DNA from: a virus
Taxonomy: Duplodnaviria; Caudoviricetes
Direction: 5' to 3' (one strand)
Length of the DNA stretch: 62,532 nucleotides
Virus record (IMG/VR): IMGVR_UViG_3300048574_000038
Span: 1 to 62,532 of that record
The position numbers and the translations under genes were made by a program. Positions 1-18,345 of this stretch are shown here, in pieces; within the stretch, counting starts at the first letter, position 1, and each line of letters opens with the position of its first letter. The notes below the pieces were generated by a model. That model was not told the origin of the DNA and made no database searches. It saw only the letters and a program-made list of their open reading frames with translations.

Positions 1-16
1 TAATCCAAAGCGTCAG
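1..16. repeat. Terminal direct repeat (copy 1), circular assembly overlap
   Basis: TAATCCAAAGCGTCAG at 1-16 is identical to 62517-62532. Confidence 0.95.
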
Positions 17-39
17 TGCGAGCGTGTCATGTACGTTAT

Positions 40-276: not shown

Positions 277-292
277 AGCCCCTCCCATGTTA

Positions 293-965: not shown

Positions 966-992
966 AAGGTGGGACACAAGATGTGCCCCACT
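963..992 (-). terminator. Intrinsic terminator-like hairpin
   Basis: - strand GTGGGGCACA-TCT-TGTGTCCCAC followed by CTTTT, just after the stop of 1009..1716. Confidence 0.5.
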
Positions 993-1008
993 TGTTTGAA
1001 ATTAGGTA

Positions 1009-1716: not shown

Positions 1717-1742
1717 AGTAACTCCCTACCTGAGTAAGATTG

Positions 1743-3680
1743 TTAGACGCGAGCCTTGGCGGCTTCAGCGCGGCGTTCGTGACGGTTCTTGCCTTTGCCC
1801 TTGTTCTTGCCAGAAGGCTTGGAAAGGACAACAGCCTTGTTGGCAGTGGCCTTGCTGATGGCTTCGCCGAGACTGTTGCCACTGGCCGCAGGCTTGGGAG
1901 CAGGGCCAACAGGAATGGCGGTACCGTTGCTGATGGCCGTGGCCTTTCTGTCAAAAGCGTTGAGCTTCAAACTGATGGTGGCGTAGTTCGTTTCGGCCTG
2001 CTGGAGATTGAACTTGGCATCTTCGAGAGCCGCTGCGGCATAAGGAGGAAGCTCACCAAGAGCGTCCTTGATTTTTTCGTTGTCCAAGGTGGTCTTGTCC
2101 ACAAGATCCTTCGCGGAAGTGACCTGCTGTTCGGCATCAAGAACTTCACGCAGAACAGCTTCTTCTTCGGCGGTAGCCTTGGCAGCTTCCTGCTTGGCCG
2201 TGTTGAAAGCTTTCACCGCAGCTTCACGCTGCTTGCGCAGGGCATCAGCGCAGGTGCCGCACATCCACGAGTTTTCGTACTTCACGGAGTCGGCAACGCC
2301 GGGGTAGTCATTGGCCATGCCTTCGGGCAATTTGGGCGGCTTGAGTTGGGACAGTCCGTTCTTCTTAAGGCCGGTCTTGCCGCACACGAGGCAAGAGTAT
2401 TTGTTGCCATTGCCGCACATTTCGCGAGTGATGGGCAGCTTTTCACCGCCGTTGTTTTCGTTGGTGGCGGAAATGTCAATGACCTTGGAGACACCTTCAC
2501 CGCCGTGCTGTTCGTTGTACACTTCCACGGTGCGTTCCCAGCTCTTCTGGATAATATCGGAGCCTTCCAGAACGTAGGTGTTCACCGCCGGGTCAAAGAT
2601 GGATTTGACCACAGGGATGCTGATGCACGGGATGCGAGTGATCGTGCCGTCGGCGTTTTGCACGTCCTTGTAGATCATGTCCTGCATCAGGTGCGGAGGA
2701 ACGTACGTGTGGACGCACTTGGGATCGTTCATCATGGTGGTGATGCGTTCGTGAATCATGCGGCGGGTGATCTGAAGAGGTTCCTTCACCGTGCCCACTT
2801 CGTAGCCGTACTGGACACCAACATACAAGCCAAGGGCGTCGTCGGTAGTGCGGTTCTGCAAATCCCAGTTGATGATCGCCGCTTCATCAAGAGTGGTATC
2901 TTTGCACAGAACTTCCTGAGGCCGTACCTGACCTTTAACGATTTCGCCATACCGAGAGTTGGGCCAGCGAACACACAGAAGAGCTTTGCCAGATGCCGCA
3001 GTAACGGTATCGATCTTACCGTTGCGTATGTCGTTGCTGATAACCGTAACTTCGTTTTCCGGCAGGCCATTGACATCGGTGATAATCACACGGTCACGGG
3101 TGGCATCCACGTTGATGGTGAGGTCGTTGACCTTAGCCTGCTGCATGCCGGGGATGGGGGCGACGGTCTTGTCGGCAAGGTTGATAACCATAGCCACGCC
3201 TTCGCCACCGGATTGCGTGTTGTAGAATTCGTCGTCGTTACCCCAACTGCGGTTGCGGTAGCCAAAGACGGAGCTTTGCGCTGCCTTCTCGGCGTAGTGC
3301 GCCACAATGGACTGCATAATGAGGGCAGGATCGGTGATGCCCTCCATGTCGCCGCCTTCCTTGAACTTCTTTTCGATGGCGCGGTCGTGCTTGAAGGTAT
3401 CCTTCAGCAGTTCGTGAACACGGAAAGCACTGGCCTTGAGGGCATTTTCGGCGGAAACACGCTGGAGGTCTGTGAGTTCAAAAGGATTGTTGGGGGACAG
3501 AGCAAAGACACTGGCGGCAAGAGCCGTACTGGCACGTTCCAGCGCCATGAGGTCGATGTTGCTGTTGACTTTGCCGACAACGATATCGGCGAAGGTGGTC
3601 TCCATACTGGAAGCTTTGGCTTCCGCAAGAGCTTTCTTCACCAACTCGTTCTGCATAAGACCAAGAATGTCGAAATGCAT
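1743..3680 (-). CDS. Hypothetical 645-aa protein with C-terminal Zn-ribbon and coiled coil
   Basis: AGGGAG SD; CLVC and CGTC motifs, Ala/Glu/Lys-rich helix, basic tail; strong codon bias. Confidence 0.85.
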   Translation of the reverse strand: MHFDILGLMQNELVKKALAEAKASSMETTFADIVVGKVNSNIDLMALERASTALAASVFALSPNNPFELTDLQRVSAENALKASAFRVHELLKDTFKHDRAIEKKFKEGGDMEGITDPALIMQSIVAHYAEKAAQSSVFGYRNRSWGNDDEFYNTQSGGEGVAMVINLADKTVAPIPGMQQAKVNDLTINVDATRDRVIITDVNGLPENEVTVISNDIRNGKIDTVTAASGKALLCVRWPNSRYGEIVKGQVRPQEVLCKDTTLDEAAIINWDLQNRTTDDALGLYVGVQYGYEVGTVKEPLQITRRMIHERITTMMNDPKCVHTYVPPHLMQDMIYKDVQNADGTITRIPCISIPVVKSIFDPAVNTYVLEGSDIIQKSWERTVEVYNEQHGGEGVSKVIDISATNENNGGEKLPITREMCGNGNKYSCLVCGKTGLKKNGLSQLKPPKLPEGMANDYPGVADSVKYENSWMCGTCADALRKQREAAVKAFNTAKQEAAKATAEEEAVLREVLDAEQQVTSAKDLVDKTTLDNEKIKDALGELPPYAAAALEDAKFNLQQAETNYATISLKLNAFDRKATAISNGTAIPVGPAPKPAASGNSLGEAISKATANKAVVLSKPSGKNKGKGKNRHERRAEAAKARV

Positions 3681-3697
3681 GTGTAACTCCCTTGTTG

Positions 3698-3955
3698 TTA
3701 ATGGTTTTTATTTTTGTCGCTACCACAGCCTTTGCCAGAGCATCTGCTGCACACGAGCAGAGACACAATAACCATGACTATGATAGCGATAGTCGCAGTG
3801 CTGATGAATACGTAAAACGCATCAAACATGCTGCTCATAACCTGTTCGTTGAACCGGCCAAGGAACATACCGAATGCGTAGACGGCAAGAAAAATGATAA
3901 CAGAGCCTACTTCAAGCTCCGCCAACAACACAATTGTCTTTCGGAGAGGGCACAT
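3698..3955 (-). CDS. Small two-TM membrane protein
   Basis: GGAGG SD before ATG at 3955; two hydrophobic stretches. Confidence 0.6.
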   Translation of the reverse strand: MCPLRKTIVLLAELEVGSVIIFLAVYAFGMFLGRFNEQVMSSMFDAFYVFISTATIAIIVMVIVSLLVCSRCSGKGCGSDKNKNH

Positions 3956-4184
3956 GATTTTCTTCCTCCACAGTGATCCATTTTGCTGAACCACGCAATC
4001 GTCTCTTGATGATTCGATTGGCTACAGGACAAAAGACTTCCACCTTGATAGCAATGCTCCTATCAAGGAGTCGCTTACCCTCTCGCATAGCACCCAAGAG
4101 AGTACGGTGGTACCGGTCAAACGTGCGTTCACGGCGCTGAATCTTGCCGACAACAAGCTTCGTGATGATAAGTCGGTATTCCAT
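3912..4184 (-). CDS. Small basic hypothetical protein
   Basis: AGGGAG SD before MEYRLIITK. Confidence 0.6.
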   Translation of the reverse strand: MEYRLIITKLVVGKIQRRERTFDRYHRTLLGAMREGKRLLDRSIAIKVEVFCPVANRIIKRRLRGSAKWITVEEENHVPSPKDNCVVGGA

Positions 4185-4206
4185 AGCCGTCTCCCTTGTA
4201 GCTAAG

Positions 4207-4479
4207 TTACTTGTTGTGGTGTCTCTTATGTAAAGTCTTTGCGCCTTTCTTTGTGACGCAATAGATCTTAACATCTGTGTAAATTCCATTACTGGAAACC
4301 ATAGCCAGAAGCATGCGCGATTCTTGAGCGGCGGCAATCGCATCACACGCTTCCGCAGTTTGCACAATTTCCAATCCGTCAGTGTGAAACTCTGGTTCTT
4401 GTTCAGCGATAGTGGCGGTACCGTCTGAACCCATGAGCATCACAATAAGAAGGAATGCAGATTTCATGCGAATGCCCAA
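4207..4479 (-). CDS. Hypothetical secreted or membrane protein
   Basis: Signal-like N-terminus; packed in the early operon. Confidence 0.55.
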   Translation of the reverse strand: MGIRMKSAFLLIVMLMGSDGTATIAEQEPEFHTDGLEIVQTAEACDAIAAAQESRMLLAMVSSNGIYTDVKIYCVTKKGAKTLHKRHHNK

Positions 4480-4766
4480 TGAATGAAGTCCGTTACAGGT
4501 TGATGGTACACAGCACCAAGAACGAAAACAATTGCTGCTGCGGCCAGACCTTTGAATATACCGTCCTCAGACTTGGCACACTCATGAAGGTAGGCATCTT
4601 CAACTGCGTCCATGTCTGCAAGCATAGATTGCCTGCGGTCGTGCATGATGGAAATGTATGTGGTGCACAGTTGCCGGTGAATAAGCAATGCAATCACAGC
4701 ATCACCAGATGCAAGAGCATTGGCAAACTTACGCTCGAGTTTCGTCACAGTGCGCATATCACGCAT
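4464..4766 (-). CDS. Hypothetical protein with C-terminal TM
   Basis: AGGAG SD before MRDMRTV; overlaps the stop of the upstream gene. Confidence 0.6.
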   Translation of the reverse strand: MRDMRTVTKLERKFANALASGDAVIALLIHRQLCTTYISIMHDRRQSMLADMDAVEDAYLHECAKSEDGIFKGLAAAAIVFVLGAVYHQPVTDFIHWAFA

Positions 4767-5163
4767 AAGAATCTCCTGAGATAGCGAAAGGGTACCCCAT
4801 GCACAGAAGTGGGTGGGCTTTCTTGTCCTCATGAATCGTGGCGATTACGCCGCGCAGGTATGTGCGGAACATACGAAGATCACTGTACTTGATCTTGTTT
4901 CCAACACGAGATACCCGATGCCGGACGACAATAACCAGACCGCCGTTGTCTTCCAACTGAACACTTGCAGTAGTTCCGAACTTACCGCGAGCCTTAAGCA
5001 AATACTTTGCTGCCCTTTCAGAGAACTCAAACAGAACGTACGGATGGTACCGTCTTCCGGGGTGGCCTGAGCAGCAGAAACGCGTGTGCAGACCGAGCAT
5101 ATTCAGGGCAATGATCTCCTGATATATGTAGCCGTCCAAGTGCACGTTAGGAAGTAAGCGCAT
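4759..5163 (-). CDS. Hypothetical protein with an LN-x-LGL-x-T-x-FCCSGH motif (TYW3-like signature)
   Basis: AAGGAG SD; motif ALNMLGLHTRFCCSGH...PYVLF. Confidence 0.6.
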   Translation of the reverse strand: MRLLPNVHLDGYIYQEIIALNMLGLHTRFCCSGHPGRRYHPYVLFEFSERAAKYLLKARGKFGTTASVQLEDNGGLVIVVRHRVSRVGNKIKYSDLRMFRTYLRGVIATIHEDKKAHPLLCMGYPFAISGDSYA

Positions 5164-5173
5164 CTCTTTCTCC

Positions 5174-5398
5174 TTATCCGTACAGATCAACGAGAATGCC
5201 AATCGTGCACAGAGCAGTAAAGACAGACAAGGCAGCATATGTCTTTTTAAACAAAAGCATGCTGTCTTTATAGATCTCTGGGTAGTCTTTCCTCAAAGGC
5301 ATGACGTTTAACAGCCAAGATACCGGAAGGCCAACTACTAAAGTAGCTACGCCACCTCCGGCAAAACCAGCTAAGCAAATTCTAAGTATCTCCTGCAT
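5174..5398 (-). CDS. Small membrane protein
   Basis: GAGGAG SD; two hydrophobic segments. Confidence 0.6.
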   Translation of the reverse strand: MQEILRICLAGFAGGGVATLVVGLPVSWLLNVMPLRKDYPEIYKDSMLLFKKTYAALSVFTALCTIGILVDLYG

Positions 5399-5600
5399 AG
5401 GTATTCTCCTCTACCATTCTGCGGTAGCGTCTTGCCCAAAGGAGCATACGAGCACGAGCCTGACGCATACGTTTGTATGCTGCTTCGAGCTTGGCATCAT
5501 AAGCATCGAGTTCCTGTTCCAATTGGCAGATTGTTTGAAGCATGTCGAAGCGTACGTACCTAAGGTTAGCTCTGCGCCGAGCGTGTGGCTTCACGCGCAA
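5382..5600 (-). CDS. Small basic coiled-coil protein
   Basis: GGAGG upstream; tightly packed ORF. Confidence 0.5.
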   Translation of the reverse strand: MRVKPHARRRANLRYVRFDMLQTICQLEQELDAYDAKLEAAYKRMRQARARMLLWARRYRRMVEENTYAGDT

Positions 5601-5919
5601 CCTCCGCAGGAATTATGGCAGTACGGGCAACACGTTCTTCCTTATTCGCATCGTGGTTAAGAGCAAACAACCACGTAGGTTCATTATGCGTACATGTTTG
5701 TACCTTCAACCAACGCCCTTGTCGCACATAAACACACAGCGTAGCACGGATAACACGAGGTTGCTTCTTGAGTTCGGATATTCTGGCATAAACTTCCGAC
5801 AAATTGCGCAGATATTCCCACGTAACTTTTTTGTTCTTGCCAGTAGGAATGCTGGTTCTCGGCATGACAGAATCGTGCTCTATCTTGAGAACCATTGCAG
5901 GAAAGGTTCTGTTCATCAC
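5566..5919 (-). CDS. Hypothetical protein
   Basis: ORF of 117 aa with a purine-rich leader, first gene of a packed cluster. Confidence 0.55.
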   Translation of the reverse strand: MMNRTFPAMVLKIEHDSVMPRTSIPTGKNKKVTWEYLRNLSEVYARISELKKQPRVIRATLCVYVRQGRWLKVQTCTHNEPTWLFALNHDANKEERVARTAIIPAEVAREATRSAQS

Positions 5920-6000
5920 CCACCTACCTAGTTAAAAGGTTATGTTCCTTGAAATAATAAAGCCACCAACTTTACGTTAGTGGCTCGATGTTGCAAGGAA

Positions 6001-7107
6001 TTATTCTACGTCCATCGGGGCGAAGTCGTTGTCCCTCGCGCCGTTCGTCTTACCCGGATGGTGCATCACACGGATTTTGCCTTCCGGCGGCCGCTTGTCT
6101 TCGTCGCTGGCGTGGCAAGTGCACACATGCTGCGGAGTTTCGGAATCATCCGCCTCCATCGGGTCAATGGCAGAAAGAAGTCGGAGAGATACGCGGGCTG
6201 CATCTTCCGCACTGATGCCGTCGATAACGATGGAAACACCACGCACAGCCATGTCGCCAGCACCAAGTTCATCCATTGTGATATCCAGCTTTGCCATGTT
6301 GTTCTCCTTCACAGGTTTGTAGGTGCGTGAAGCAAGCCAGTCGTATTCACCACGAAGTAAAAGAATATCTTTATCCTTCTGGTCAACGGTGTCGTGCAAA
6401 CTGTTGCACTCTTCTGTAAGCAGGTCGTTGCGCTGCTCCAGTTCCTTGATACGAACAGACGCAAGCCTCGCGTTGTGTTGGAGATTCTTGAGTGCTTCCA
6501 CGAGATACACCGGGTTAGTCCCGCTTGCTTTCAACTTGCGGAACTTGTTAACCAAGTGTTCCAACTTGTGCCTGTAACTAGCGGACATAAGGGACAAGTC
6601 TCTGTCCCGACGTTTGTGCGCTTGGCGTTGCCGTTCCAACTTGCTTTGCAACGCTGTGTTTTCCCGTTCAAGCTGACCAAGCCTGTGTTGGAGATCCTCA
6701 TTTTGTGCCTCAATAAATGTCAATCCGATATTGGGCACATTGCTTTCAGTGAGCAAAGCAAGTTCCTGCTCAAGTTGAGCAACCGTATCGAGAAGCTCCG
6801 CATTGCGATTGTTGCACTTCTCGCAGACGGTGTATTCCAACTGTTTGGGAGAACTTTCCGTGGGCAACTTCTGTCCAAACTGAAGAAACTTGCCTACTTC
6901 AGCATCCACTAACGCCACGAATTTGTCAAAAGCGCCGGATTCTTTGCTGACGATGTCGGGGATAAGTTCCCGTACACTTTCGTAGTCCAGTATCTGCTTA
7001 GCGAGAAGCAGCATGTTCTGCGCATGAGGGTAATCTTCCGCCAGTTTGTCAAGAATGTTGTTAGTAACACGCAGCGTCTCTTCCACGAGCGTTTCCAACT
7101 TTTCCAT
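6001..7107 (-). CDS. Coiled-coil protein (368 aa)
   Basis: AAGGAG SD; long heptad-rich region, CEKC motif; internal SD plus ATG at 6297. Confidence 0.8.
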   Translation of the reverse strand: MEKLETLVEETLRVTNNILDKLAEDYPHAQNMLLLAKQILDYESVRELIPDIVSKESGAFDKFVALVDAEVGKFLQFGQKLPTESSPKQLEYTVCEKCNNRNAELLDTVAQLEQELALLTESNVPNIGLTFIEAQNEDLQHRLGQLERENTALQSKLERQRQAHKRRDRDLSLMSASYRHKLEHLVNKFRKLKASGTNPVYLVEALKNLQHNARLASVRIKELEQRNDLLTEECNSLHDTVDQKDKDILLLRGEYDWLASRTYKPVKENNMAKLDITMDELGAGDMAVRGVSIVIDGISAEDAARVSLRLLSAIDPMEADDSETPQHVCTCHASDEDKRPPEGKIRVMHHPGKTNGARDNDFAPMDVE

Positions 7108-7127
7108 AATAGCTCCTTTGTTTTATT

Positions 7128-7483
7128 GGGCAGCCTTGCGCACGACTGCCCTAAAAACCAAGGATATTTTACGTTAATGAGTACCAACAAACTAGCAGGG
7201 AATTGCTAGACTTGGTAAATATCAGCCAACTGCTGTACATACAGAGTCCCAAACTCTGCGTTGCAACAGGCACAACACGGCGCATGGCACGTACACTAAT
7301 GTGTAGATAGCTGACTGTATTATGAATGTGGTGAACATGTGTTCCCATCCATCCCACAGCGGGGTAAGCCAGATACTAACACACTTGTACACGGCAGTAC
7401 GCATAATAGCTACTGCATACACAACCACTCCTTTGTTTTATGCAAGCCCCAACTCTAGGTCAGAGCTTGTATTAAAGCAAAGG
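7128..7483 (-). ncRNA. Possible structured RNA B or processing leader
   Basis: Hairpins GGGCAG/CTGCCC, ACCAA-CTAGCA/TGCTAG-TTGGT, CAGAG/CTCTG, GCAGTA/TACTGC and a long irregular stem at 7430-7483; ORFs here are unconvincing. Confidence 0.4.
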
Positions 7484-7519
7484 AATTGACCGAAGGGAAA
7501 CTAATTGACCGAAGGGAAA
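7484..7519 (+). repeat. Tandem 17-bp motif AATTGACCGAAGGGAAA (2 copies)
   Basis: Copies at 7484-7500 and 7503-7519; further copies at 10996-11012 and, inverted with 2 mismatches, at 9824-9840. Confidence 0.85.
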
Positions 7520-7528
7520 GGAAACAAG

Positions 7529-8224
7529 TTATGCCGCCTGCTTGTTAACCTGCAAGCAAGAGGCAATGGCCGCAACCACGCTTGCCATCATGGCGTTATT
7601 GTCGGCAACAGGAGAAAGCATTTTCACCACGTCTTCAAGAGGCTTGGGCAGAGGAGCCGCAGTACTGGAAGGCAGGTCAACGCCAAGCTCCTTTGCCTTC
7701 TTTTCAAGGCGAGAGAAGGAATCAAGAATGGCCTTCGCCTTGTCTTCCTGCGTCTTGGCGGCGTTCTTCGCTTCGCGTTCGGCCTTTTGTTCGGCCTTCA
7801 GGTTGTCGTACCACTTGCCCGCGCCAAGAACAGTGATGGCAATGGCGGACACAAAGGCCAGACATTCCTTGTCCACGTCAGACAGTTTGTTCGGGTCACG
7901 GCTGGACTCCCAAGCCTTGCCGCCGGACTTGTCCTTATAAATGGCCTGTGCGGCGCGGAAAGAGAAGACAACCTTCTTCTTGTCCTTGTCCCACATAACG
8001 GGAACGCCCTTGCGCGTCATGTACTCGCGCATGTAGGGCTTCATCTTGTCCGGCACGGCGGCAAGCAATTGGTTGCAGTATGTGGCGTTGCAATCACGAA
8101 TGGCACGTTCAACGCAGGGAAGCAGCAGGGTTTGCGCACCTTCCTGCATTTCCTTGACGGTTGCCGTGAACTTCGCCAGCTTGGAAACAAGATCACTTTC
8201 GCTCATAATGTACGCAGTGGCCAT
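7529..8224 (-). CDS. Early hypothetical protein (231 aa)
   Basis: GAGGAG SD; strong codon bias. Confidence 0.85.
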   Translation of the reverse strand: MATAYIMSESDLVSKLAKFTATVKEMQEGAQTLLLPCVERAIRDCNATYCNQLLAAVPDKMKPYMREYMTRKGVPVMWDKDKKKVVFSFRAAQAIYKDKSGGKAWESSRDPNKLSDVDKECLAFVSAIAITVLGAGKWYDNLKAEQKAEREAKNAAKTQEDKAKAILDSFSRLEKKAKELGVDLPSSTAAPLPKPLEDVVKMLSPVADNNAMMASVVAAIASCLQVNKQAA

Positions 8225-8253
8225 GGTGTATCTCCTCTGTATTAAATTGTTGT

Positions 8254-8269
8254 TGTTTCATGTGAAACA
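8254..8269. promoter_or_regulatory. parS-like palindrome
   Basis: TGTTTCATGTGAAACA, one mismatch from the chromosomal parS consensus TGTTTCACGTGAAACA. Confidence 0.75.
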
Positions 8270-8286
8270 TTGTTTAGTGACTAACC

Positions 8287-8334
8287 AAAAATAAAAACCG
8301 CTAGGTAAGACCTTTTGTCAAGGATACCTAGCGG
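8287..8334 (-). terminator. Intrinsic terminator
   Basis: CCGCTAGGTA...TACCTAGCGG stem followed by TTTTTATTTT on the - strand. Confidence 0.75.
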
Positions 8335-9014
8335 CTTGTATTTTGTTTTGTCTTTCCTGCCGTATCGTTGCTTCGCTAGAAACATCGTCTACGGCTACCT
8401 TTGAATCAAACGGATTTCGCCAGCCCATACTTTCGTTGCTGGTATTACACAAGCCCGTGTACTTGTGCTTTTACTGGCTATCTTTACAAGTAACCCCTTT
8501 TGCCTTTTATCAAGGCCAGCCTAGTGTTTGTGAAACACTAAACCGCGTTTCGGTTACTTGCTGGAAGCGTTGTTTCATGTGAAACGCATATTGTTTTCTC
8601 CGTAAAGAAAACTAACGTTCACTTAAAACGTACTTCCATCACGCAATCCCATTATGCTTATGCAAGGGCAATCCTTGCCATACTTGGGATATGCTATCCG
8701 CCGTATTGTCTCTTTATATGGCGCAATCTTGCGCGAGACTATCCCACTGCATTACGCTTTCTGAGTCTGCGCAATGTGCCAGTACAGCAGGAAGGCGGGC
8801 CAGTAACTAAGCATGTGCCTAGCTTGGCGGTCTTTACGGCAATGCAGTATTATGAGCGCTGCACCGTGTGACAATTCACACGCTAAGTATAGGGAAAAGT
8901 TAATCTAGTTAACCCTTTCGTTAATCCCTAACTTTTCGCCTTTTGTATCTTATGTGCGGCTTGCGCTGCACAACGTACTAAGGCTTGCGCTTGGTACTTT
9001 CGTACCTTCTCTTG
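8290..9014 (-). ncRNA. Candidate large structured RNA C (about 720 nt), bounded by promoter and terminator
   Basis: Starts just after the promoter at 9021-9049 and ends at the terminator; GGTAC-GAAA-GTACC and GC-GCAA-GC GNRA hairpins on the - strand; dense stems; no - strand ORF of 60 aa or more. Confidence 0.72.
8571..8586. promoter_or_regulatory. parS-like palindrome (second copy)
   Basis: TGTTTCATGTGAAACG. Confidence 0.7.
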
Positions 9015-9020
9015 ATAGTT

Positions 9021-9049
9021 ACCTTACACGAAAGCAAGGAACTTGTCAA
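9021..9049 (-). promoter_or_regulatory. Sigma70-type early promoter
   Basis: TTGACA-17bp-TAAGGT with TG upstream of the -10 and an AT-rich UP region. Confidence 0.75.
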
Positions 9050-9118
9050 GAAAAAACTTTATTTAATTTTCAGCGGGCTTGCGGCGCTTTGAGCTGCCAG
9101 CTACTGCCCTATGTGAAA

Positions 9119-9147
9119 ATCCTACTCTTTTGCGGCGGGCTTGTCAA
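9119..9147 (-). promoter_or_regulatory. Sigma70-type early promoter
   Basis: TTGACA-17bp-TAGGAT, A-tracts upstream. Confidence 0.75.
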
Positions 9148-9234
9148 CTACTTTTTTCACTTTTCAAAAACTTTCTTTTCTTGTATTTGCGGGTCAAATC
9201 TACTCTAGGTTGAGTGCCTACCCTGTTAGAAAAG

Positions 9235-9263
9235 AGATTAAAGAAAACTGGAAACAATGTCAA
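9235..9263 (-). promoter_or_regulatory. Sigma70-type early promoter
   Basis: TTGACA-17bp-TAATCT, AT-rich upstream. Confidence 0.72.
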
Positions 9264-9321
9264 GTAAAATTTTTGGGCTTGTCTTATTTAATGTAGCACA
9301 AGCCCTAAGCTACTGATATTG

Positions 9322-9807
9322 TTAGCTTTTTTCTTCTTGTCTTTTGCAATAGCGGCGAGCTATCACAAGATTGCATGCCCGCAAATGCCTTGCCTGCCGG
9401 ACATTATCCGCAGATACAGTGACCGTCATTGCGAGATTGTCACTTGTTTGGCCTATGTATATGGCCTTGCTGCGGCCTTTGCCTTGTGCAACGTCCATCC
9501 ACAAGGCGTTGCTGATTGTCTTGGCCTTGGATGCAATGCGGCAACCATTGTTTTTATACGTTCGCCGCGTGTTCTTTGCCGGTAATGTGATAACGTCCAC
9601 GCCCTCGATTGTTTCCACAATACACTTGCTCACATAGCGTTGCAATTTGTCGGCCTTGCGTTGTGCCTTGTCCTGCCATTCTTTGCCTTGCGCCATGAGC
9701 CGCATGGCCTCTCCGGCTAACTGCCTTGCTTCCTTGGCGGATTTGCCTTGCTTGCGATATAGCTTTATCAGCTTTTTGATATAGCCAGCCCTTTCGATTT
9801 TGTCCAT
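9322..9807 (-). CDS. Basic early hypothetical protein
   Basis: GAGGAGG SD before MDKIERAG; Lys/Arg-rich. Confidence 0.75.
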   Translation of the reverse strand: MDKIERAGYIKKLIKLYRKQGKSAKEARQLAGEAMRLMAQGKEWQDKAQRKADKLQRYVSKCIVETIEGVDVITLPAKNTRRTYKNNGCRIASKAKTISNALWMDVAQGKGRSKAIYIGQTSDNLAMTVTVSADNVRQARHLRACNLVIARRYCKRQEEKS

Positions 9808-9912
9808 TTTTTGCCTCCTCACTTTTCCCTTTAGTCAATTGTTGTCTATATAGATTGTTCTACCATAGCAAAGCACAAACTATACAGGCTTGTGCCTTGG
9901 CTGATAGAACAG

Positions 9913-10074
9913 CTAATAGTTGACAGTATGATTTGCACCGGGCATAAAATCGTATGCCCAATCTATGCCAGCACGCCATGCCCGCCAATGGGAGCCAAAA
10001 CATACAGATGCCGTGCTAAACCGCATATCGTTATGGGATACTGCCATGACGATACAAGAAAAGAAATTATCCAT
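9913..10074 (-). CDS. Small early protein (53 aa), absent from the ORF track
   Basis: GAGGTAGG SD, MDNFFSCIVMAV...TVNY*. Confidence 0.5.
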   Translation of the reverse strand: MDNFFSCIVMAVSHNDMRFSTASVCFGSHWRAWRAGIDWAYDFMPGANHTVNY

Positions 10075-10170
10075 TACCTACCTCGCAAGTTAATTGTTAA
10101 TCCAATCCAAGGCGCAAATATTCCAGCTACTTGCGCCTTGTATGATTCAACAATCGTAATTCCAGCGGCC

Positions 10171-10335
10171 TTACTCCGCATTGCGTCTGGTAATGTTGTC
10201 TATTTCAATCTGGATTGCCCTTTCTTCGGCCTCTTCACGCTCCTCGGCAAGCCGCCTGCGTTCTTCGGCTGATTGTTCAACCCGTTGTGACCATTCCAGC
10301 AAGAGAGATATGACATAATCGTTTGTATTGCTCAT
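10171..10335 (-). CDS. Small acidic helical early protein
   Basis: AGGGAG SD before MSNTND. Confidence 0.65.
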   Translation of the reverse strand: MSNTNDYVISLLLEWSQRVEQSAEERRRLAEEREEAEERAIQIEIDNITRRNAE

Positions 10336-10899
10336 GGTATTTGCTCCCTTTAATCGCAAAGGTTATTAAGCAGCAAGCTAGCTGATTGCATAGCCAAGTT
10401 TGCCTGAAACATACTCGCGCATTCATTGTAACGGCGTTGCGTCCAGCTATACGTTGTGTGCATGTGCAAGCGTTGCATACGGATTGCTCCAAGAGACATT
10501 GTTTCGAGGCGGGCTTGATCGTAGCGTTCGCGTCCGTAGTATGTGGCCATGTGCATTCTCCTGATGCCTTGCGGCGGTTAAGGTGAACTTGAACTGAAAA
10601 CAATTTAGCAAAGTTTTAAAAGAAAGTAAAGTTTTAATAAAATCAATTAGTTAGCTTTAAGTTCTTGTTGGAGCCTATGCTTCTAGCGAAGCGACGATGG
10701 TACTTGTCTTTCCATTGGTATCGTATTGCAGACTATGTGCCGATTCCGGGTAATTTTTGGGTGCAATTTCGCTTGTTTACGTCCAAATACCTGTAATTAT
10801 TGACAAAAAGTCACAAAAGTGAAGAATTTCACAAGGGGGAGAGGGGTTATAGGGGTACCAGTGGACACGAGGGTGACGGCTACGGGTGCAAGGAAAGCC

Positions 10900-11330
10900 A
10901 TCTCTGTGTATATTTATAAAATTTAGATTGATATTTATATCACCTCTATGTATATTTACTAAAGTTAGCTGTATATTTACAAAACTTAGATAAATAATTG
11001 ACCGAAGGGAAAAAGAAAAGGCCACCAATCTTTTCCTGATAATTCGGAGAAAACTGATGGCCAGTAGTGGGTATGAGAAGTACCAAAGGTACCATGAAGT
11101 TCTTTAAGCTACTTAAAGTAGTTTAATTATTTATAGTACTATATGTAGATAATAGCCTAGAACATATAGTATTATTATAATAAAATATAATATATTAAAG
11201 TATTTTAGTACTTTATGTAGATAAATTAACTATAAGTACTTGACATACTTATAGTATGTATTATAAGTACTTTAAGTTATTTAAGATAAATTTAAAGATC
11301 ATAATAGCCCGCCTTAAGTTTCTTAATTTC
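10900..11330. other. AT-rich non-coding region with short repeats and palindromes (candidate genome end or origin)
   Basis: TGTATATTTA x3 (10907, 10949, 10970), AGTACT/AAGTACTT palindromes, G-rich tract at about 10834-10890 just before. Confidence 0.5.
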
Positions 11331-11406
11331 CGAACTACGGTTATACTGCTTTTTGTTTTTAAAGAAGATAGTTGGTTGAACTGCCCTTTTACGAACTTTA
11401 ATATCT

Positions 11407-12351
11407 TCATTCCGAATTACTAGTTTGAAGTTTGCGCTCATCTTCGTATACATCCCATGTTAGATCTTCCGGAACTTGCTCAGGCAAGTGTGACGTATCT
11501 GTAAATTTCTTTTTATTTTTCTTTATACGAGACTCTAATACCTCATAGCGCGTCTTGCCACTTGCAACTTCTTTCTCCGTCATAAAGAAATTATTATCTG
11601 TGCCTACGAAATATTTACCGGGAAGATAGTTGTAATAGCACCAAAGCTTATTTACACCATTTTCAACGTCTCGAAGTACGAAACGCTTAATAACTTTCTT
11701 ATCTTCCTTATATCTTTTCTCTCGAAGTAGGCTTTGTAGGTGTTTAAGTTCTTTATCATCTGTTTCAGATGGGAAAACTTCACCCGTACTTTCTCTTAAT
11801 TTGTATTCTAATCCATTTAAACCAAGCATTTGGTGAGGATTATCATACAACATCAAGCCTCTTTTGTGAAATCTTAGATTATTTTTAAACCAAAGTATCT
11901 TACTGCCCGGCGTTGCTGAACTATTTTTATGTGTCAGATACCAAGCCGGGTCATTAAATGCATTTTTAGGCGAGCAAACGTGCATAGCATACGGGGATGG
12001 AAGCAAAATAGGCTGACATCTTTGTATGACTTTTGGCGTTGCATTAAATTGATTAAGGCCAATGTTAAAAGTAACACGTCCGGCGAAGTATTGTCCATGA
12101 AATCTTCCGAAATATGGCACTTTTACTTCCTTGCCTTCTCGAATGCACGTTAAAATTTCGTGAAATAAGCAATTTACCAGACGAACTTGTTCAGATCTTG
12201 GTATTGTAAAATACGGCATGATCCGATCCATAAGTTCGCTAAAGCAAATTGAGTTATTTCTTGGTTTACCAGTCTTAGGATCACGACTAACATACGGCAC
12301 ATGTGGTGAAAGACCCCTAAAAGGCAGTCTGTATGTTCCTAAATTTCCCAC
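11407..12351 (-). CDS. Protein with an HU/IHF-like DNA-binding domain and unknown C-terminal region
   Basis: SEQVRLVNCLFHEILTCIREGKEVKVPYFGRFH...RVTFN matches the HU/IHF pattern (L..GE.V.I.GFG.F...R.G.NP); AGGAG SD. Confidence 0.65.
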   Translation of the reverse strand: MGNLGTYRLPFRGLSPHVPYVSRDPKTGKPRNNSICFSELMDRIMPYFTIPRSEQVRLVNCLFHEILTCIREGKEVKVPYFGRFHGQYFAGRVTFNIGLNQFNATPKVIQRCQPILLPSPYAMHVCSPKNAFNDPAWYLTHKNSSATPGSKILWFKNNLRFHKRGLMLYDNPHQMLGLNGLEYKLRESTGEVFPSETDDKELKHLQSLLREKRYKEDKKVIKRFVLRDVENGVNKLWCYYNYLPGKYFVGTDNNFFMTEKEVASGKTRYEVLESRIKKNKKKFTDTSHLPEQVPEDLTWDVYEDERKLQTSNSE

Positions 12352-12393
12352 AACTATCTCCTACTTAAAATAAATATCTGAGTGTGAACAACA

Positions 12394-12675
12394 ATGGACG
12401 TTTCTACAGTACTTGAGTTCTTTAAAGACATAAGCCCGCTGATAAATACGGCTAGTTTCGCTACATTTTTGATTTTGTATTCAAAAATACGGGACATAGA
12501 GGCTACAATAGCACTGCTTGATGGCAGAGTTACGAGATATCTTGAAAGAACAGTAACTGTAGAGCAAGATCTTAAAGAAATTACTTCTTTTGTCTACTCA
12601 CACTACAATCTTACTCCCGAAAATGCTTTGAAATATCTTCATAGGCATAACGGGTGTCAATCTGTAGAAAAATAA
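12394..12675 (+). CDS. Small membrane/coiled-coil protein
   Basis: N-terminal hydrophobic helix followed by heptads; first gene of the late block. Confidence 0.6.
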   Translation: MDVSTVLEFFKDISPLINTASFATFLILYSKIRDIEATIALLDGRVTRYLERTVTVEQDLKEITSFVYSHYNLTPENALKYLHRHNGCQSVEK

Positions 12676-12720
12676 ACATAAAAGTAGCAGTTGTCAAACT
12701 TAATTAGATAGGTATATACT

Positions 12721-13077
12721 ATGAGTAAGTCAATATCCGAAATACGAGATCTTGCTTTAGATCTAAAAGACCAATTTAAAGTACCCTGCGCTATGGCTGC
12801 TTCAAAAGCGCCCACTGGTGTTGGGAAAAGTAAGAATGACGTGCTTGTGCAGCGACTTGCAATGGAGTTTAATCACGATCCGGTGCAAGAGTTAGTTAAA
12901 CTCGCGCAGAGTAATCGCATTAGTCCAGATCTTAAAGCTAAAATCAATATGGAATTTTTGCAGTATTATCTTCCGAAGCTTCGTGCCATTGATACGAACC
13001 CGAATCAAGGCGAAGTTATTCAGATTAATATTGTAAACCCCCACGACATTGTGGATGCTGAAATAATAGACAGATAA
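12721..13077 (+). CDS. Putative terminase small subunit
   Basis: Position upstream of TerL; KNK-type segment (VGKSKND), DP..EL helices, YYLPKLRAI motif, C-terminal beta strand. Confidence 0.6.
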   Translation: MSKSISEIRDLALDLKDQFKVPCAMAASKAPTGVGKSKNDVLVQRLAMEFNHDPVQELVKLAQSNRISPDLKAKINMEFLQYYLPKLRAIDTNPNQGEVIQINIVNPHDIVDAEIIDR

Positions 13078-13095
13078 ATATAAATGAGGTAAGTT

Positions 13096-13416
13096 ATGTT
13101 GCTTAAAATTGTTTACGGTGCTGGTAACAGTTTGTACATTACAGATATTAAGTCTGTAAGTTTTGTAGCTCACCACTCGGATGATGCAGAGATCATTGAT
13201 TTTGACAAAGAGCTTGGCTGCAATGAACGTGTAATTTTTTCAGAAGATTACCTGCGAAATCAAGTAGGCTGTTCTCCTAAGGGGGAAGACGATCGTAAAT
13301 ACTATATGAACTCTGTGTGCATCTATACCCCGGCTACCGATCCGGAAGTTATTTTCTTCACCGGTACCGCGTACCTCTGTGATGATACGGGGAAGACTGT
13401 AGATACACTGAGGTAA
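13096..13416 (+). CDS. Hypothetical protein
   Basis: GAGG SD; C-terminal YLCDDTGKTV motif. Confidence 0.7.
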   Translation: MLLKIVYGAGNSLYITDIKSVSFVAHHSDDAEIIDFDKELGCNERVIFSEDYLRNQVGCSPKGEDDRKYYMNSVCIYTPATDPEVIFFTGTAYLCDDTGKTVDTLR

Positions 13417-13420
13417 TCTT

Positions 13421-14848
13421 ATGCAGATTACTTACGAAGTATCTCCCACTTTCGCACTGTTTCATAAGTGTGAAAAGTTTATGAAATTTGTAATGGGGCC
13501 AGTTGGTTCGGGTAAAAGCTCCAGTTGTGTTATGGACTTGTTCTTTAATGCAATGAAACAAGTTCCAGATAAAGATGGTATACGTAGATCTCGTTACTGT
13601 GTTATCCGCGCAACCTATCCTCAGCTTCGGTCGTCAACAGTTAAGACGTGGCAGGAATGGTTCAAGGATAAGATTCAAATTACGTATACTAACCCGATCA
13701 CTGGCCGCATTCGCTACGATCTTGCCGATGGTACAAAACTTGACATGGAAATATTCTTTGTCGCCATCGAAGATGAAGTAGCGGCTGAAAAATTACGTTC
13801 TTGGGAATTTACAGGTGCGTGGGTTAACGAAGCTCACGAAATACCTGAATATCTTCTTGAAGCTATTCTTCCTGCTCGTGTAAACCGTTATCCATCTATC
13901 AACAGTGGACATGGTGCTGTGTGCCCTCAGATAGTAGTTGACTACAACGCTGTCTCTACGGAGCACTGGCTTTATAAATGGGCTGAGGAAATAAAACCTG
14001 AGAATTGTGAGTTCTTTAGACAGCCTCCTGCGGTACTTAAAGATGCTTCCGGGAGATACTTCGTAAATCCAGATGCTGAGAATTTAAATCACCTTGCTGA
14101 TAATTATTATCAGAACATGTTAGCTGTCGCTTCTACGGAAGTTATTCAGACAGACTTGATGAACATGTATGGTGAACGTAAAGCTGGTAAGCCTGTATAT
14201 AAAGACTTTGAAGATGCAAGTCACACAGCAGTAGCTACATTGACTCCTCCACAAGGTCTCCCTGTTATCATTGGCCTTGACCAAGGATTAACTCCTGCCG
14301 CAGCTTTTACGTACCAAGCAATGGATGGTACACTCTGTATTTTTGATGAAATCTCTACAGAAGATTGTTCTCTTAAAGAGTTCGCAGAAAGCTATCTGTG
14401 GCCGATGATTAATACAAAATACCCTTGGATCAAAAAGAATTTCGTTTGTGTAATAGATCCTGCCGCAGCGCAGAGAAGTATGAACGATGCCAAGGCTGGT
14501 CTAGAAATATTAAAGGAAGCTGGATTACCTGTAAAGCTAGCTAAATCCAACTCTCCTGTAGAACGACGAGAAGCTGTTACACACTTCCTGTTGTTACGTG
14601 ACAAATTTAAGTTGTCTCCAGATTGCCATATGCTTAGACGCGGCTTCATATCTGAATATAAATATGAAGAGCGTAGAGCAGTATCCGGCGAACGGTTCAA
14701 AGATAAACCTTTGAAAAATATGTATTCTCATGTGCATGATGCTTTGCAATATGCTGCTATGGAGTACGTTGGTTCAAGGAAACGGAATAAATTCATAAAT
14801 CAACATCCTAAAAAGTATACAGTCGCTAGCACTATCGGTGGTTATTAA
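13421..14848 (+). CDS. terL: Terminase large subunit
   Basis: Walker A GPVGSGKS, IRATYPQL, Walker B WVNEA, nuclease GLDQG, DPA and HVHDALQY. Confidence 0.93.
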   Translation: MQITYEVSPTFALFHKCEKFMKFVMGPVGSGKSSSCVMDLFFNAMKQVPDKDGIRRSRYCVIRATYPQLRSSTVKTWQEWFKDKIQITYTNPITGRIRYDLADGTKLDMEIFFVAIEDEVAAEKLRSWEFTGAWVNEAHEIPEYLLEAILPARVNRYPSINSGHGAVCPQIVVDYNAVSTEHWLYKWAEEIKPENCEFFRQPPAVLKDASGRYFVNPDAENLNHLADNYYQNMLAVASTEVIQTDLMNMYGERKAGKPVYKDFEDASHTAVATLTPPQGLPVIIGLDQGLTPAAAFTYQAMDGTLCIFDEISTEDCSLKEFAESYLWPMINTKYPWIKKNFVCVIDPAAAQRSMNDAKAGLEILKEAGLPVKLAKSNSPVERREAVTHFLLLRDKFKLSPDCHMLRRGFISEYKYEERRAVSGERFKDKPLKNMYSHVHDALQYAAMEYVGSRKRNKFINQHPKKYTVASTIGGY

Positions 14849-14850
14849 AC

Positions 14851-17046
14851 ATGGCAGAACTTGATTTTTTTAAGTATCCTATACAGCCTGAACAGAACAG
14901 CAATCCACAAGATGAACAACTTGCTGCAACAGAAGCTGCTATTAAGGATACCGTTAAAAAACTTGAAGAAGAGCAGGCTAAGAAAGATAAACTTGATAAG
15001 CTGGTTGCTCCGCTTACTGTTGATAGTACTACTAAAGAAGATGGTGCTAACTACAAAGAATACGCGGATAACCTCGCTATCTTTGTGCGCGATTGCTTTG
15101 AAGCTTCTGAGAACTCTCGTAAGACCATTGAAGATGGTTGGATTAAGTCTCTTAAGCAATATAAAGGTATCTATCAATCTGATGTTGCCGCGCGAATAGT
15201 TCCGAATCGTAGTCAAGCATTTGTGCGTATTACTCGTACAAAAGTTAAGACCGTCGATTCTCGTCTTTGTGACCTGTTGTTCCCGGCTAATGGCGAGAAG
15301 AACTGGGGTATTACTCCTACGCCAATTCCTGACTACTCTCCGCAGAAGAAACAAATGCTTATCCAAATGCATGCTCAGGAGACTGGTGAAGAAGTTACAC
15401 CTGAAGAATTTGATGTGCTTCTTACTGAAACAGCTAAGAAACAATCTACGAAGATGGCCAAGAGGATTGAAGACCAGCTTTCAGAAATGAAGTACAGGGA
15501 GATTATGCGTGAAGTTATTCACAGCGGTAATGTCTATGGTACAGGGTTTCTTAAAGGGCCATTCGTCTCTATCGTTGAAAATAAGCAGTATACCAAACAA
15601 CCAAGTGATGATGGTAGTGGCAAATGGCTGCTTGAAAATTACGACAGGATCATACCCTTCGCAGAAAACGTTCGTGTTTGGGACATCTACCCGGACATGG
15701 AAGCAACGACTATCAATGATTGTCGATATATTATCCAACGTCGTAAAATGAATAAGCATGATCTACTGTGTCTTTCTAAACGTAACGACTTCTCTACGGA
15801 TGTTATTAACAACTATGTTAAGATGTATCCGGAAGGTCGTTATACAAAGAAAGCCTTTGAGCTTGATCTGCAAACGATGGGTGATGTAACAAGTCTTCCT
15901 GCTGATAGCGAGAGCACAGCTCGTAAGTACGAAGTGCTTGAATTTTGGGGATACGTTGATGCTAAGTCTCTTACAGAGTTTGGCGTTAAAGTTCCCGATG
16001 ATAAACTTGGTTTGATTGACATTCCTGCTAACGTTTGGGTTCTTGGTAATAAAGTAATTAAAGCTATTCTCTCACCTCTCGAAGGTGTTAAATGGCCGTA
16101 TTTTACATATTACTACGATAAAGACGAGACATGTGTTTTTGGTGAAGGTATTCCCAGTATCATGTCTACAATGCAGGAAATGACGAACTCTGCTTTCCGT
16201 GCTATGCTTGATAATGCTGCTATTTCCGCTGGCCCTCAGATGGAAGTAAATCTTGATTTGCTTTCTGAGGATGAAGATCCGCGAGAAGTTCACCCATTTA
16301 AAGTATGGATGCGTACAGGTACAGGTAGTGATGCACAAGCACAATGCCTGCGTATGCTGGAAGTACCTTCATACACGGCAGAGTTTGAACGCATGCTCAA
16401 TCTGTTCTCTACGTATAACGATGAAATCACTACGATTCCTCGGTATATGTGGGGTGATAATTCTGGTGGTGCTGGTCGTACATCCAGTGGCCTGTCTATG
16501 CTTATGGGCAGTGCTAACATGGCTATTAAAGATCAGGTAAAGAACTTTGATGATGGTATTACTACTCCATTTATTCGTTCTATGTACCACTGGAATATGC
16601 AGTTTAGTGATGATGAAGACATCAAGGGAGATTATACAGTAATTGCTCGTGGTAGTGCTTCTCTCATTGCTAAAGAAATGTATGCTCAATATCTTATTCA
16701 GTTCCTTAACATTACGGCTAATCCAGAAGATGCGTCTATTGTTAAACGTCCTGATATTATTCGTGCAGTTGCGGATACCTTTGACTTGAACAGTGAAGCT
16801 TTCGTTCTTTCTGATAAGGAAATCGAAGCGCGTAATCAACAGAGTCAAGCTGAGCATCAACAACAGCAACAATTCATGTACAGCATTATTGAAGCTGCTC
16901 GTGAAAATGGTATCTCTCCCGAAGCTCTTATCTCGAATATGAGGCAACTGCAGCAGGAACAGCAGAAGACCTTGCAACAGCAAGTTAATATGCTGCAACA
17001 GCAGAAACAACAGCAACGTGCGCCACAAGCGCAAGGTATGATGTAA
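14851..17046 (+). CDS. Portal protein
   Basis: 731 aa after TerL; YGTGFLKGP, FGEGIP, AMLDNAAISAGP and RTSSGLSML motifs; Q-rich C-terminus. Confidence 0.88.
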   Translation: MAELDFFKYPIQPEQNSNPQDEQLAATEAAIKDTVKKLEEEQAKKDKLDKLVAPLTVDSTTKEDGANYKEYADNLAIFVRDCFEASENSRKTIEDGWIKSLKQYKGIYQSDVAARIVPNRSQAFVRITRTKVKTVDSRLCDLLFPANGEKNWGITPTPIPDYSPQKKQMLIQMHAQETGEEVTPEEFDVLLTETAKKQSTKMAKRIEDQLSEMKYREIMREVIHSGNVYGTGFLKGPFVSIVENKQYTKQPSDDGSGKWLLENYDRIIPFAENVRVWDIYPDMEATTINDCRYIIQRRKMNKHDLLCLSKRNDFSTDVINNYVKMYPEGRYTKKAFELDLQTMGDVTSLPADSESTARKYEVLEFWGYVDAKSLTEFGVKVPDDKLGLIDIPANVWVLGNKVIKAILSPLEGVKWPYFTYYYDKDETCVFGEGIPSIMSTMQEMTNSAFRAMLDNAAISAGPQMEVNLDLLSEDEDPREVHPFKVWMRTGTGSDAQAQCLRMLEVPSYTAEFERMLNLFSTYNDEITTIPRYMWGDNSGGAGRTSSGLSMLMGSANMAIKDQVKNFDDGITTPFIRSMYHWNMQFSDDEDIKGDYTVIARGSASLIAKEMYAQYLIQFLNITANPEDASIVKRPDIIRAVADTFDLNSEAFVLSDKEIEARNQQSQAEHQQQQQFMYSIIEAARENGISPEALISNMRQLQQEQQKTLQQQVNMLQQQKQQQRAPQAQGMM

Positions 17047-17047
17047 T

Positions 17048-17302: not shown

Positions 17303-17357
17303 ACATTCTTCCAGTAATTTAGGACTTGGCACTTGTGTCCCCTAAAAGGAAAAAAGA

Positions 17358-18317: not shown

Positions 18318-18345
18318 TACTACACATCTTTAGAGGTTATCTACA

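Follow-up and report, generated by a model that had tools for sequence, protein, structure and literature searches.

The phage genome held in IMG/VR as record IMGVR_UViG_3300048574_000038 (Duplodnaviria; Caudoviricetes; 62,532 bp), which was analyzed over its whole length and is called the window here, carries two 16-bp palindromes that closely resemble parS, the site that loads ParB on bacterial chromosomes. Both have the form of a variant that, judged by its natural occurrence in bacteria, is a parS allele, and no ParA or ParB was detectable in the phage. We regard the chances as evenly balanced that the two palindromes are host-type parS sites that load the ParB of the host. A third palindrome between them lies outside the parS system and is a hairpin of the predicted structured RNA in whose gene one of the two sites is embedded.

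Two variant parS-like sites in the early region

The original prediction had placed two chromosomal-type parS sites and a third, degenerate palindrome in this part of the genome, and a check of the sequence recovered all three. The two 16-mers are indeed of the chromosomal parS type, since site 1 (TGTTTCATGTGAAACA, positions 8254 to 8269) and site 3 (TGTTTCATGTGAAACG, positions 8571 to 8586) are identical to TGTTTCACGTGAAACA at 15 and 14 of the 16 positions, respectively. The arms of site 1 are 7 bp long, and its center reads TG where canonical parS has CG; site 3 shows the same central change plus a G at the variable position 16. Neither copy keeps the perfect dyad with its central CG, as both read CATG where the canonical site has the central CG of CACGTG. 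In textbook parS, this central CpG is invariant. Both sites also fit the relaxed form NGTTNCACGTGAAACN with one central mismatch each; an excerpt of PMC7022226 quotes this form for Vibrio cholerae, with position 16 given as N.

A genome-wide scan found one mismatch to TGTTTCACGTGAAACA at site 1 and two at site 3, and the next best sites in the genome have four. When up to two mismatches were allowed, the pattern TGTTTCAYGTGAAACR was found in the 62.5 kb at sites 1 and 3 alone, with four strand-matches. Among 100 dinucleotide shuffles, the mean count of this pattern was 0.22 and the maximum was 2, so that none reached the observed 4. The two sites are also part of an exact 17-nt direct repeat, GTTGTTTCATGTGAAAC (repeat family D20), which is present at 8252 to 8268 (plus strand) and 8569 to 8585 with 100% identity and a spacing of 317 nt. 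Sites 1 and 3 are therefore not independent; as duplicates of a single 17-mer, they represent one event instead of two.

Read on the minus strand, site 1 follows a terminator U-tract at a distance of 17 nt and precedes the Shine-Dalgarno sequence of the gene at 7529 to 8224 by 16 nt. Site 3 lies inside the predicted structured-RNA gene, and both sites stand at the head of the leftward early gene block. The half-site GTTTCAC (minus strand) occurs in all three palindromes within 333 bp; genome-wide, it is not elevated, with 7 copies observed and 8.2 expected. Other identities were considered for these sites and dropped. An origin with DnaA boxes was set aside, as no cluster of TTATCCACA-like boxes lies nearby, and a sigma-70 promoter overlapping site 1 was found neither in the promoter scan nor on reading the sequence. 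Motifs of the Cra/LacI and PsrA types have similar letters, but their half-sites presumably have the opposite orientation. A chance origin of sites 1 and 3 appears unlikely, since the shuffled sequences fall short of the observed count and the 16-mer is identical to a natural parS allele.

The variant 16-mer as a parS allele in bacteria

By the criterion of natural occurrence in par and ori regions, the phage 16-mer (TGTTTCATGTGAAACA/G) is a natural chromosomal parS allele. When one genome per prokaryote species was scanned, the exact 16-mer turned up in at least 132 stretches. We examined 80 of the listed bacterial loci with 3-kb flanks, some of which overlap on one contig. A ParA or ParB homologue was found within 3 kb of the variant at 29 of the 80 loci, and 9 of the 11 loci with multiple sites hold ParA and/or ParB according to Pfam, typically in a gidA-gidB-parB-parA-parB origin neighborhood. 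The assignment to the chromosomal type was thus borne out, with the exact 16-mer found beside parA, parB, or gidAB in many bacteria of several phyla.

The variant also occurs together with canonical sites. It lies tens of bases from a canonical parS in three loci (L115, L133, and L149), and in four proteobacterial genomes, variant and canonical sites are found on common contigs. The Moraxellaceae, the family of a Psychrobacter aquimaris record, were sampled with 61 genomes. The 14-nt core of the variant was found in 12 of these 61 genomes, in 2 to 9 copies each, while a reversed control gave single matches in 2 of the 61; the canonical core was found in 21. All but one of the 12 variant-bearing genomes (the exception is G016) also hold the canonical core, and in the three compared by coordinate (G039, G057, and G062), variant and canonical cores are interleaved in the same zones. 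Thus, in part of the family, which also includes G052, TGTTTCATGTGAAACA is multicopy, origin proximal, and interleaved with canonical parS. A lone ParB_N gene was seen in G062, far from the variant and canonical parS sites of that genome. In four genomes (G057, G046, G033, and G012; loci L239 to L242), the variant abuts TTATCCACA boxes, which we take to be DnaA boxes, in a context that looks like oriC.

When 29 bacterial variant sites were read with their flanks, position 1 was T in 24 and position 16 was A in 19, so that the commonest full form of the variant in this sample is that of phage site 1. As a widespread natural parS allele, TGTTTCATGTGAAACA would be useful for the annotation of parS sites.

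Absence of a partition protein and parS-type sites in other viruses

The phage had been described in the original prediction as having no ParA or ParB, and none could be detected. Among the 69 open reading frame (ORF) translations (26 + 43), Pfam gave no match to the ParA and ParB families and no helix-turn-helix (HTH) or ParB-like domain. A six-frame hidden Markov model search of the whole record (94% complete) returned nothing at an E value of ≤1 for ParB_N, HTH_ParB, or AAA_31/ParA.

The presence of parS-type sites in viruses is broad. Canonical parS was found in at least 137 IMG/VR stretches versus 2 for the reversed control and is therefore at least 68-fold commoner. In such viral contigs (L246 to L325), we also observed arrays of up to five sites within 0.8 to 0.9 kb. 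The 17-mer of the present phage was found in 82 IMG/VR stretches, all of them unrelated to it. In 45 of these 82, the palindrome is completed by the base that follows, and none of the 82 has a bacterial-type ParA or ParB within 2.5 kb. A phi29-like contig (L010, with Podovirus_Gp16) holds two canonical sites and one variant, and another contig with a phi29-type capsid gene holds two variants at each of its two ends (L061 and L062). Separately, a 23-mer search of JGI metagenomes returned an unrelated metagenome contig with 26 identical bases around the variant (L219, positions 3001 to 3026), in which the site is flanked by copies of the palindrome GTGCCAAATTTGGCAC upstream of a gene start.

The parS sites of phi29 and Nf are reportedly the subject of work by Meijer et al. 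(2005), which is known to us via citing papers. In the part of PMC2731898 that treats them, phi29 is said to carry five parS sites, and the segregation of its genome into the prespore is said to involve the host Spo0J; an excerpt of PMC9437464 likewise summarizes the phi29 and Nf parS sites as being read by the host Spo0J. Our own scan of the phi29 record found four exact TGTTCCACGTGAAACA sites. With phi29, there is already a known case of a virulent, ParB-less phage that carries host-type parS, and the likeness to the present phage is that a virulent podophage with no ParB of its own carries chromosomal-type parS; in phi29, the reader is the host ParB. The two phages are unrelated, and their sites differ. 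In phi29, they match the host consensus exactly and are spread across the right half of the genome, some of them within genes, whereas the present phage has two central-variant copies 317 bp apart in noncoding DNA at the head of the early region. The present case departs from phi29 in three respects: its allele is a different one, its sites stand in and next to a predicted RNA gene at the head of the early genes, and its host is probably Gram-negative and non-sporulating. For phages other than those of the phi29 family, no report of the use of host ParB was found in the literature.

Host ParB as the putative reader

We favor the host ParB as the reader of sites 1 and 3 because it is the simplest one and has a precedent in phi29. 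The match to parS, the natural allele, the lack of a reader in the phage, the phi29 precedent, and the breadth of such sites in viruses all support this reading. After entry of the DNA, the host’s own ParB dimers would recognize the two sites, 317 bp apart, close as CTP-dependent clamps, and then spread over the adjacent phage DNA. This spreading would couple the phage genome to the ParA/SMC positioning machinery of the host, and such coupling could allow the segregation of an unreplicated or carrier-state phage genome. ParB spreading could also damp the transcription of the adjacent early RNA and gene. We infer the binding of host ParB and all of these downstream effects by analogy with phi29 and its use of the host Spo0J.

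In chromosomal ParABS, as set out in an excerpt of PMC7022226, parS (TGTTNCACGTGAAACA) loads ParB-CTP clamps and SMC. The phage sites have the same 16-bp architecture, are clustered, and have the exact allele found in bacterial par and ori regions; in contrast, they sit on a replicon without a cognate ParB or ParA, have a central TG for CG in both copies, and are accompanied by no canonical copy. Pseudomonas aeruginosa ParB is reported to bind half-parS (GTTTCAC or GTTCCAC; PMC7022226, PMC5961200, and PMC10419367). GTTTCAC stands on the minus strand in all three phage palindromes, but the count of the heptamer is not raised in the phage, and that of palindrome 2 is lost in a relative. The plasmid-prophages P1 and N15 have their own ParA and ParB, with specific parS sites of their own sequence. 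Like them, the present phage carries centromere sites on a phage genome; unlike them, it encodes neither reader nor motor and has no integrase or plasmid-replication match.

Relatives and the likely host

Relatives were viewed via the contigs of four sequencing runs, from four studies, aligned to the phage. These contigs cover the RNA gap at 80 to 99% likeness, which is about equal to that of the flanking genes. No difference falls inside either 16-mer among the 40 of 411 differences listed for these close relatives (80 to 99%), and in the high-depth contigs of run X1, which span both sites, the listed differences also fall elsewhere. In a relative from run X7, the match stops at 8585; the next letter there is an A, with which the palindrome would be complete, and the sequence beyond it is unrelated. 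The segment from 8358 to 8417 is an indel hot spot among the related contigs.

Against IMG/VR, the 231-aa protein encoded at 7529 to 8224 gave nothing useful as a single query, an alignment of the 161-aa protein encoded on the other side of the RNA gave no match, and a 20-mer from the RNA had 0 matches. A 6-sequence alignment of the 231-aa protein had no match in JGI metagenomes or IMG/VR, and blastn and tblastn searches against GenBank phages also gave no match. IMG/VR contains one close relative (L002; terminase, 93% identical), whose sequence ends 395 nt upstream of the terminase gene. Homologues of the neighboring proteins sit on 60- to 63-kb ENA/Logan contigs.

The phage is a lytic-type podophage. 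Its nearest cultured relatives are distant, with major capsid proteins 35 to 41% identical, and infect Pseudoalteromonas, Pseudomonas, Xanthomonas, and Stenotrophomonas. The lysin has GH108 and PG_binding_3 domains (Pfam). The type of lysin and the distant relatives on Gammaproteobacteria together point to a host that is probably Gram-negative and non-sporulating. A protein atlas gave the phylum Pseudomonadota as a host lead, with nothing finer, and words of the phage were found in small shares (0.05 to 0.14) in sequencing runs of wastewater, sludge, bioreactor, and aquatic samples. Given this likely Gram-negative host without spores, spore entrapment is excluded as a purpose of the sites here.

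Palindrome 2 and a predicted structured RNA

The original prediction had the positions of the sites right but missed that sites 2 and 3 lie inside a predicted gene for a large structured RNA. In minus-strand order, the 1.1-kb gap between the genes of the 161-aa and 231-aa proteins contains promoter-like sites, the predicted RNA, a strong terminator, site 1, and the ribosome-binding site of the 231-aa gene. The predicted noncoding RNA, of about 730 nt, spans 8283 to 9014 on the minus strand; we infer its 5' end, and it may extend to 9112 or 9228 if upstream promoters are used. It was recognized from its folding and from the lack of a long ORF, as no minus-strand ORF longer than 44 aa is present in the region. 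In a 791-nt test segment (8225 to 9015), which overshoots the RNA at both ends, the fold z score was -11.7 for the minus strand and -6.4 for the plus strand, while four coding controls of equal length gave -2.2, -1.7, -4.35, and -1.3. In a 300-nt sliding scan, the top minus-strand outliers were the RNA region and the tRNA cluster. In Rfam, three tRNAs alone matched across the whole genome at the gathering score, and a search of 8200 to 9350 at an E value of ≤10 returned nothing credible, the best match being to a snoRNA model with 24.4 bits against a gathering score of 44. From these predictions, it seems rather probable that 8283 to 9014 encodes a large structured early RNA that belongs to no class yet described. 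GOLLD and ROOL are large, ornate, phage-associated noncoding RNAs. The present RNA resembles them in being several hundred nucleotides long, highly structured, and phage borne; it differs in that no Rfam family model matched it. As a candidate large structured phage RNA, it is an object separate from the parS sites and possibly a more novel one.

The boundaries of the RNA are suggested by promoter and terminator sequences on the minus strand. The promoter scan found a sigma-70-like promoter at 9119 to 9147 (TTGACA-N17-TAGGAT, 10 of 12 matches). Two further sigma-70-like candidates were read by eye, one at 9021 to 9049 (TTGACA-N17-TAAGGT, with a perfect -35 and 3 of 6 positions of the -10), preceded by an A+T-rich stretch at 9051 to 9070, and one at 9235 to 9263 (TTGACA-N17-TAATCT, with 3 of 6 at the -10); owing to their weak -10 elements, both fell outside the scan listing. 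At the other end, an intrinsic terminator at 8288 to 8344 has a 10-bp G+C-rich stem, which extends to 20-nt arms and is followed by a TTTTTATTTTT U-tract. It corresponds to the inverted pair I6, with arms 90% complementary and a 17-nt loop. A G>A change of the relatives at 8304, in the terminator, keeps a G.U pair on the minus strand alone. Short repeats with CAAGCCCGC (family D9; 9066 to 9081, 9128 to 9143, and 10502 to 10517) were seen just upstream of or inside the promoter-like sites of the early leader, and CAAGCCC at about 9277 to 9283 also stands near such sites. N4-like hairpin promoters for a virion RNA polymerase were considered and dropped, since no polymerase domain was seen in the 2086-aa protein of the virion module and sigma-70-like promoters are present.

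Palindrome 2 (8522 to 8540) is a perfect palindrome, its 8-nt arms separated by 3 nt, and it forms the apex of a 13-bp RNA hairpin on the minus strand (8517 to 8545). It had been predicted to be a degenerate member of the parS cluster, which was not supported: it shares with parS nothing beyond the 7-nt half-site GTTTCAC (minus strand), its pair probability in the RNA is about 1, and its stem is swapped in a relative. As a stand-alone RNA, the hairpin has a folding energy of -14.3 kcal/mol, and its pair probabilities in the ensemble of the full RNA are 0.66 to 1.0; its three outer G.U pairs are possible on the minus strand alone. The contigs of run X1 have a different self-complementary sequence in place of the inner stem and loop, while the outer pairs are kept (loose ends at 8523 and 8539), and the heptamer GTTTCAC is lost. 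Such replacement of the stem by another complementary pair is characteristic of an RNA hairpin and not of a protein-binding DNA site. The original prediction had named covariation of the palindromes as RNA hairpins as an outcome that would speak against it, and this was seen for palindrome 2 only. The seven listed variants in the RNA are uninformative on covariation; six of them fall in predicted pairs, and three of these six keep pairing.

These observations raise the question of whether the 17-mer shared by sites 1 and 3 also acts in RNA, its hairpin GUUUCACAUGAAAC(AAC) being a structural, processing (e.g., for RNase III or RNase E), or protein-binding element and its likeness to parS being coincidental. 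One copy would then lie in a structured RNA and the other in the 5' leader of 7529 to 8224, where it could, for instance, serve an RNA-binding phage protein as an autoregulatory operator. The location of sites 2 and 3 inside an RNA with a z score of -11.7, the stem swap in palindrome 2, and the position of site 1 in a leader, just past a terminator and 16 nt before a Shine-Dalgarno sequence, are consistent with such a role. Furthermore, 8615 to 8632 is predicted to pair with site 3, including G.U pairs that are possible on the minus strand alone. Nevertheless, the two copies are in different structural contexts. Neither forms a stable hairpin by itself, with stand-alone energies of -4.7 kcal/mol for site 1 and -4.2 kcal/mol for site 3. 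In the ensemble of the RNA, the self-hairpin of site 3 has a probability of about 0, while its long-range helix with 8615 to 8632 has one of about 0.99; site 1 is a free, weak hairpin outside the structured RNA, beyond the terminator. Because site 3 is predicted to pair elsewhere and site 1 lies outside the RNA, no common RNA role is apparent for the 17-mer, which argues for recognition at the DNA level. No more copies are found at other gene junctions, and a 7-bp stem would hardly equal an exact natural parS allele by chance (0 of 100 shuffles). Overall, a role at the RNA level alone fits palindrome 2 and not the shared 17-mer, and we consider an RNA-level motif with a coincidental likeness to parS to be unlikely.

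Neighboring genes and an operator for another protein

The sites might instead be an operator for a different DNA-binding protein, either an unrecognized early protein of the phage or another host regulator, that controls the early RNA and 7529 to 8224. Site 1, directly upstream of a gene, occupies a classic operator position, the majority of early proteins are without annotation, and the region holds another repeat of a regulatory kind, the 17-nt motif AATTGACYRAAGGGAAA. This motif has four copies, at 7484 to 7500, 7503 to 7519, and 10996 to 11012 (plus) and at 9824 to 9840 (minus), whereas 0.07 copies are expected and none of 100 shuffles reaches 4. The copies are found at gene boundaries of the early block, with a tandem pair just past the stop of the 231-aa gene and one copy just upstream of the 161-aa gene.

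The neighboring proteins offer no evident candidate for such a regulator, and the Pfam analysis found no HTH or ParB-like domain in the 69 ORFs. Downstream on the minus strand, the gene at 7529 to 8224 encodes the 231-aa protein, which has six homologues (55 to 99% identity) and no Pfam or PHROG match. Its AF2 model has a pLDDT of 72.9; Foldseek gave no match at an E value of ≤0.001 (best E, 0.56), and a wide VIA search gave generic helical matches with Z scores of ≤6.8. Judged from this model, the 231-aa neighbor is without a recognizable DNA-binding fold. Upstream, the gene at 9322 to 9807 (minus) encodes the basic 161-aa protein, with 75 homologues, whose AF2 model, too poor for a fold search (pLDDT, 65.3; pTM, 0.33), shows no evident DNA-binding fold. 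Most of these homologues have 226 to 245 aa, and many have 226 aa, with a conserved C-terminal extension missing from the phage form; no remnant of this extension was found in the window. The short-form lineage of the 161-aa protein may be the lineage that carries the promoter and RNA insert. In addition, no sigma-70 promoter overlaps site 1 or site 3, in the scan or on reading, and an independent operator could equal a natural parS allele only by coincidence. An operator of this kind is therefore quite improbable. That the sites have no function, being a chance palindrome duplicated locally in a repeat-rich noncoding region, would suit two copies of one 17-mer and an unraised GTTTCAC count, but we consider it very improbable given that no shuffle reaches the observed count, that a natural parS allele has this very sequence, and that contigs of four studies, 80 to 99% alike, show no difference inside the sites among the 40 of 411 listed.

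The reading of sites 1 and 3 as parS sites for host ParB must be weighed against several observations that count against it. The central CpG is altered in both copies, and the phage has no canonical copy. A single duplication event lies behind both sites. The neighboring palindrome 2 behaves as an RNA hairpin, and the predicted RNA gene that contains or adjoins the two sites is rich in hairpins, so that palindromes are to be expected there. The exact variant string had no match in the published literature in either orientation, so that no paper testing its binding was found. No parS-like site with up to two mismatches is present in any of the four distant cultured relatives (major capsid proteins 35 to 41% identical). 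The conservation of the sites was seen indirectly, in close relatives and among the 40 of 411 differences listed, which makes this evidence weak. Finally, no link to a host was found in the family in which the variant was sampled: the tail-fiber protein had two weak matches in 301 Moraxellaceae genomes, and bases 1 to 20000 of the phage gave 15 chance-level DNA matches in the same genomes, with no direct repeats around three of the four best.

Genome organization

The whole record is one contig of 62,532 bp with a completeness rating of 94%, and it is classed as linear. Its ends (1 to 16 and 62517 to 62532) share an exact 16-nt overlap, given which the assembly may be circular or terminally redundant. 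A block of early genes without annotation occupies 1 to 10.6 kb on the minus strand and has a G+C content of 0.49 versus 0.43; most early proteins have no annotation, and the early ORFs without one number roughly 15. From 12.4 to 40 kb, the plus strand encodes the terminase, portal, an N4-gp56-like major capsid protein, several tail fibers, and a 2086-aa LPD38 protein. From 40 to 62 kb, the minus strand encodes a family-A DNA polymerase, helicase, primase, ligase, endonuclease I, ThyX, the GH108 lysin, and three tRNAs. Among the Pfam and PHROG matches of the phage ORFs, none was to an integrase or a plasmid-replication protein.

The 2086-aa LPD38 protein of the virion module (32706 to 38966, plus) matches the very long phrog_14770 and phrog_616 with its C-terminal half alone, and no polymerase domain was seen in it with Pfam and PHROG profiles. 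At 40088 to 40309 (minus), a 73-aa ORF with an RF-1 (peptidyl-tRNA hydrolase/release-factor) domain (E = 5e-17) encodes a small ribosome-rescue-like protein. The A+T-rich gap from 10601 to 11400 (G+C content, 0.318 versus 0.44 overall) contains 21/42-nt tandem-like repeats and long imperfect inverted repeats and is a candidate replication origin or physical end of the genome.

Implications for phage use of host ParB

The borrowing of a host centromere protein has been shown experimentally for the phi29 family alone, where it serves spore entrapment. A more far-reaching possibility for the present phage, which we put forward as a long shot, is that a lytic phage of a non-sporulating, Gram-negative host plants the host’s own parS allele in and beside the gene of a new class of large (about 730 nt) structured early RNA. 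ParB-CTP clamps might then act as a cell-cycle-linked switch or tether that silences or licenses the RNA and the early genes, or they might mark the genome as chromosome-like “self” for SMC-family machinery, and the phage could persist in a carrier state without a partition gene of its own.

If host ParB does read sites 1 and 3, the purpose would be something other than spore entrapment, for instance, the positioning or carrier-state inheritance of the genome, the silencing of transcription as ParB spreads, or a disturbance of host segregation. Moreover, in a non-sporulating and probably Gram-negative host, such a use of the sites would make the borrowing of host ParB a general trick of phages.

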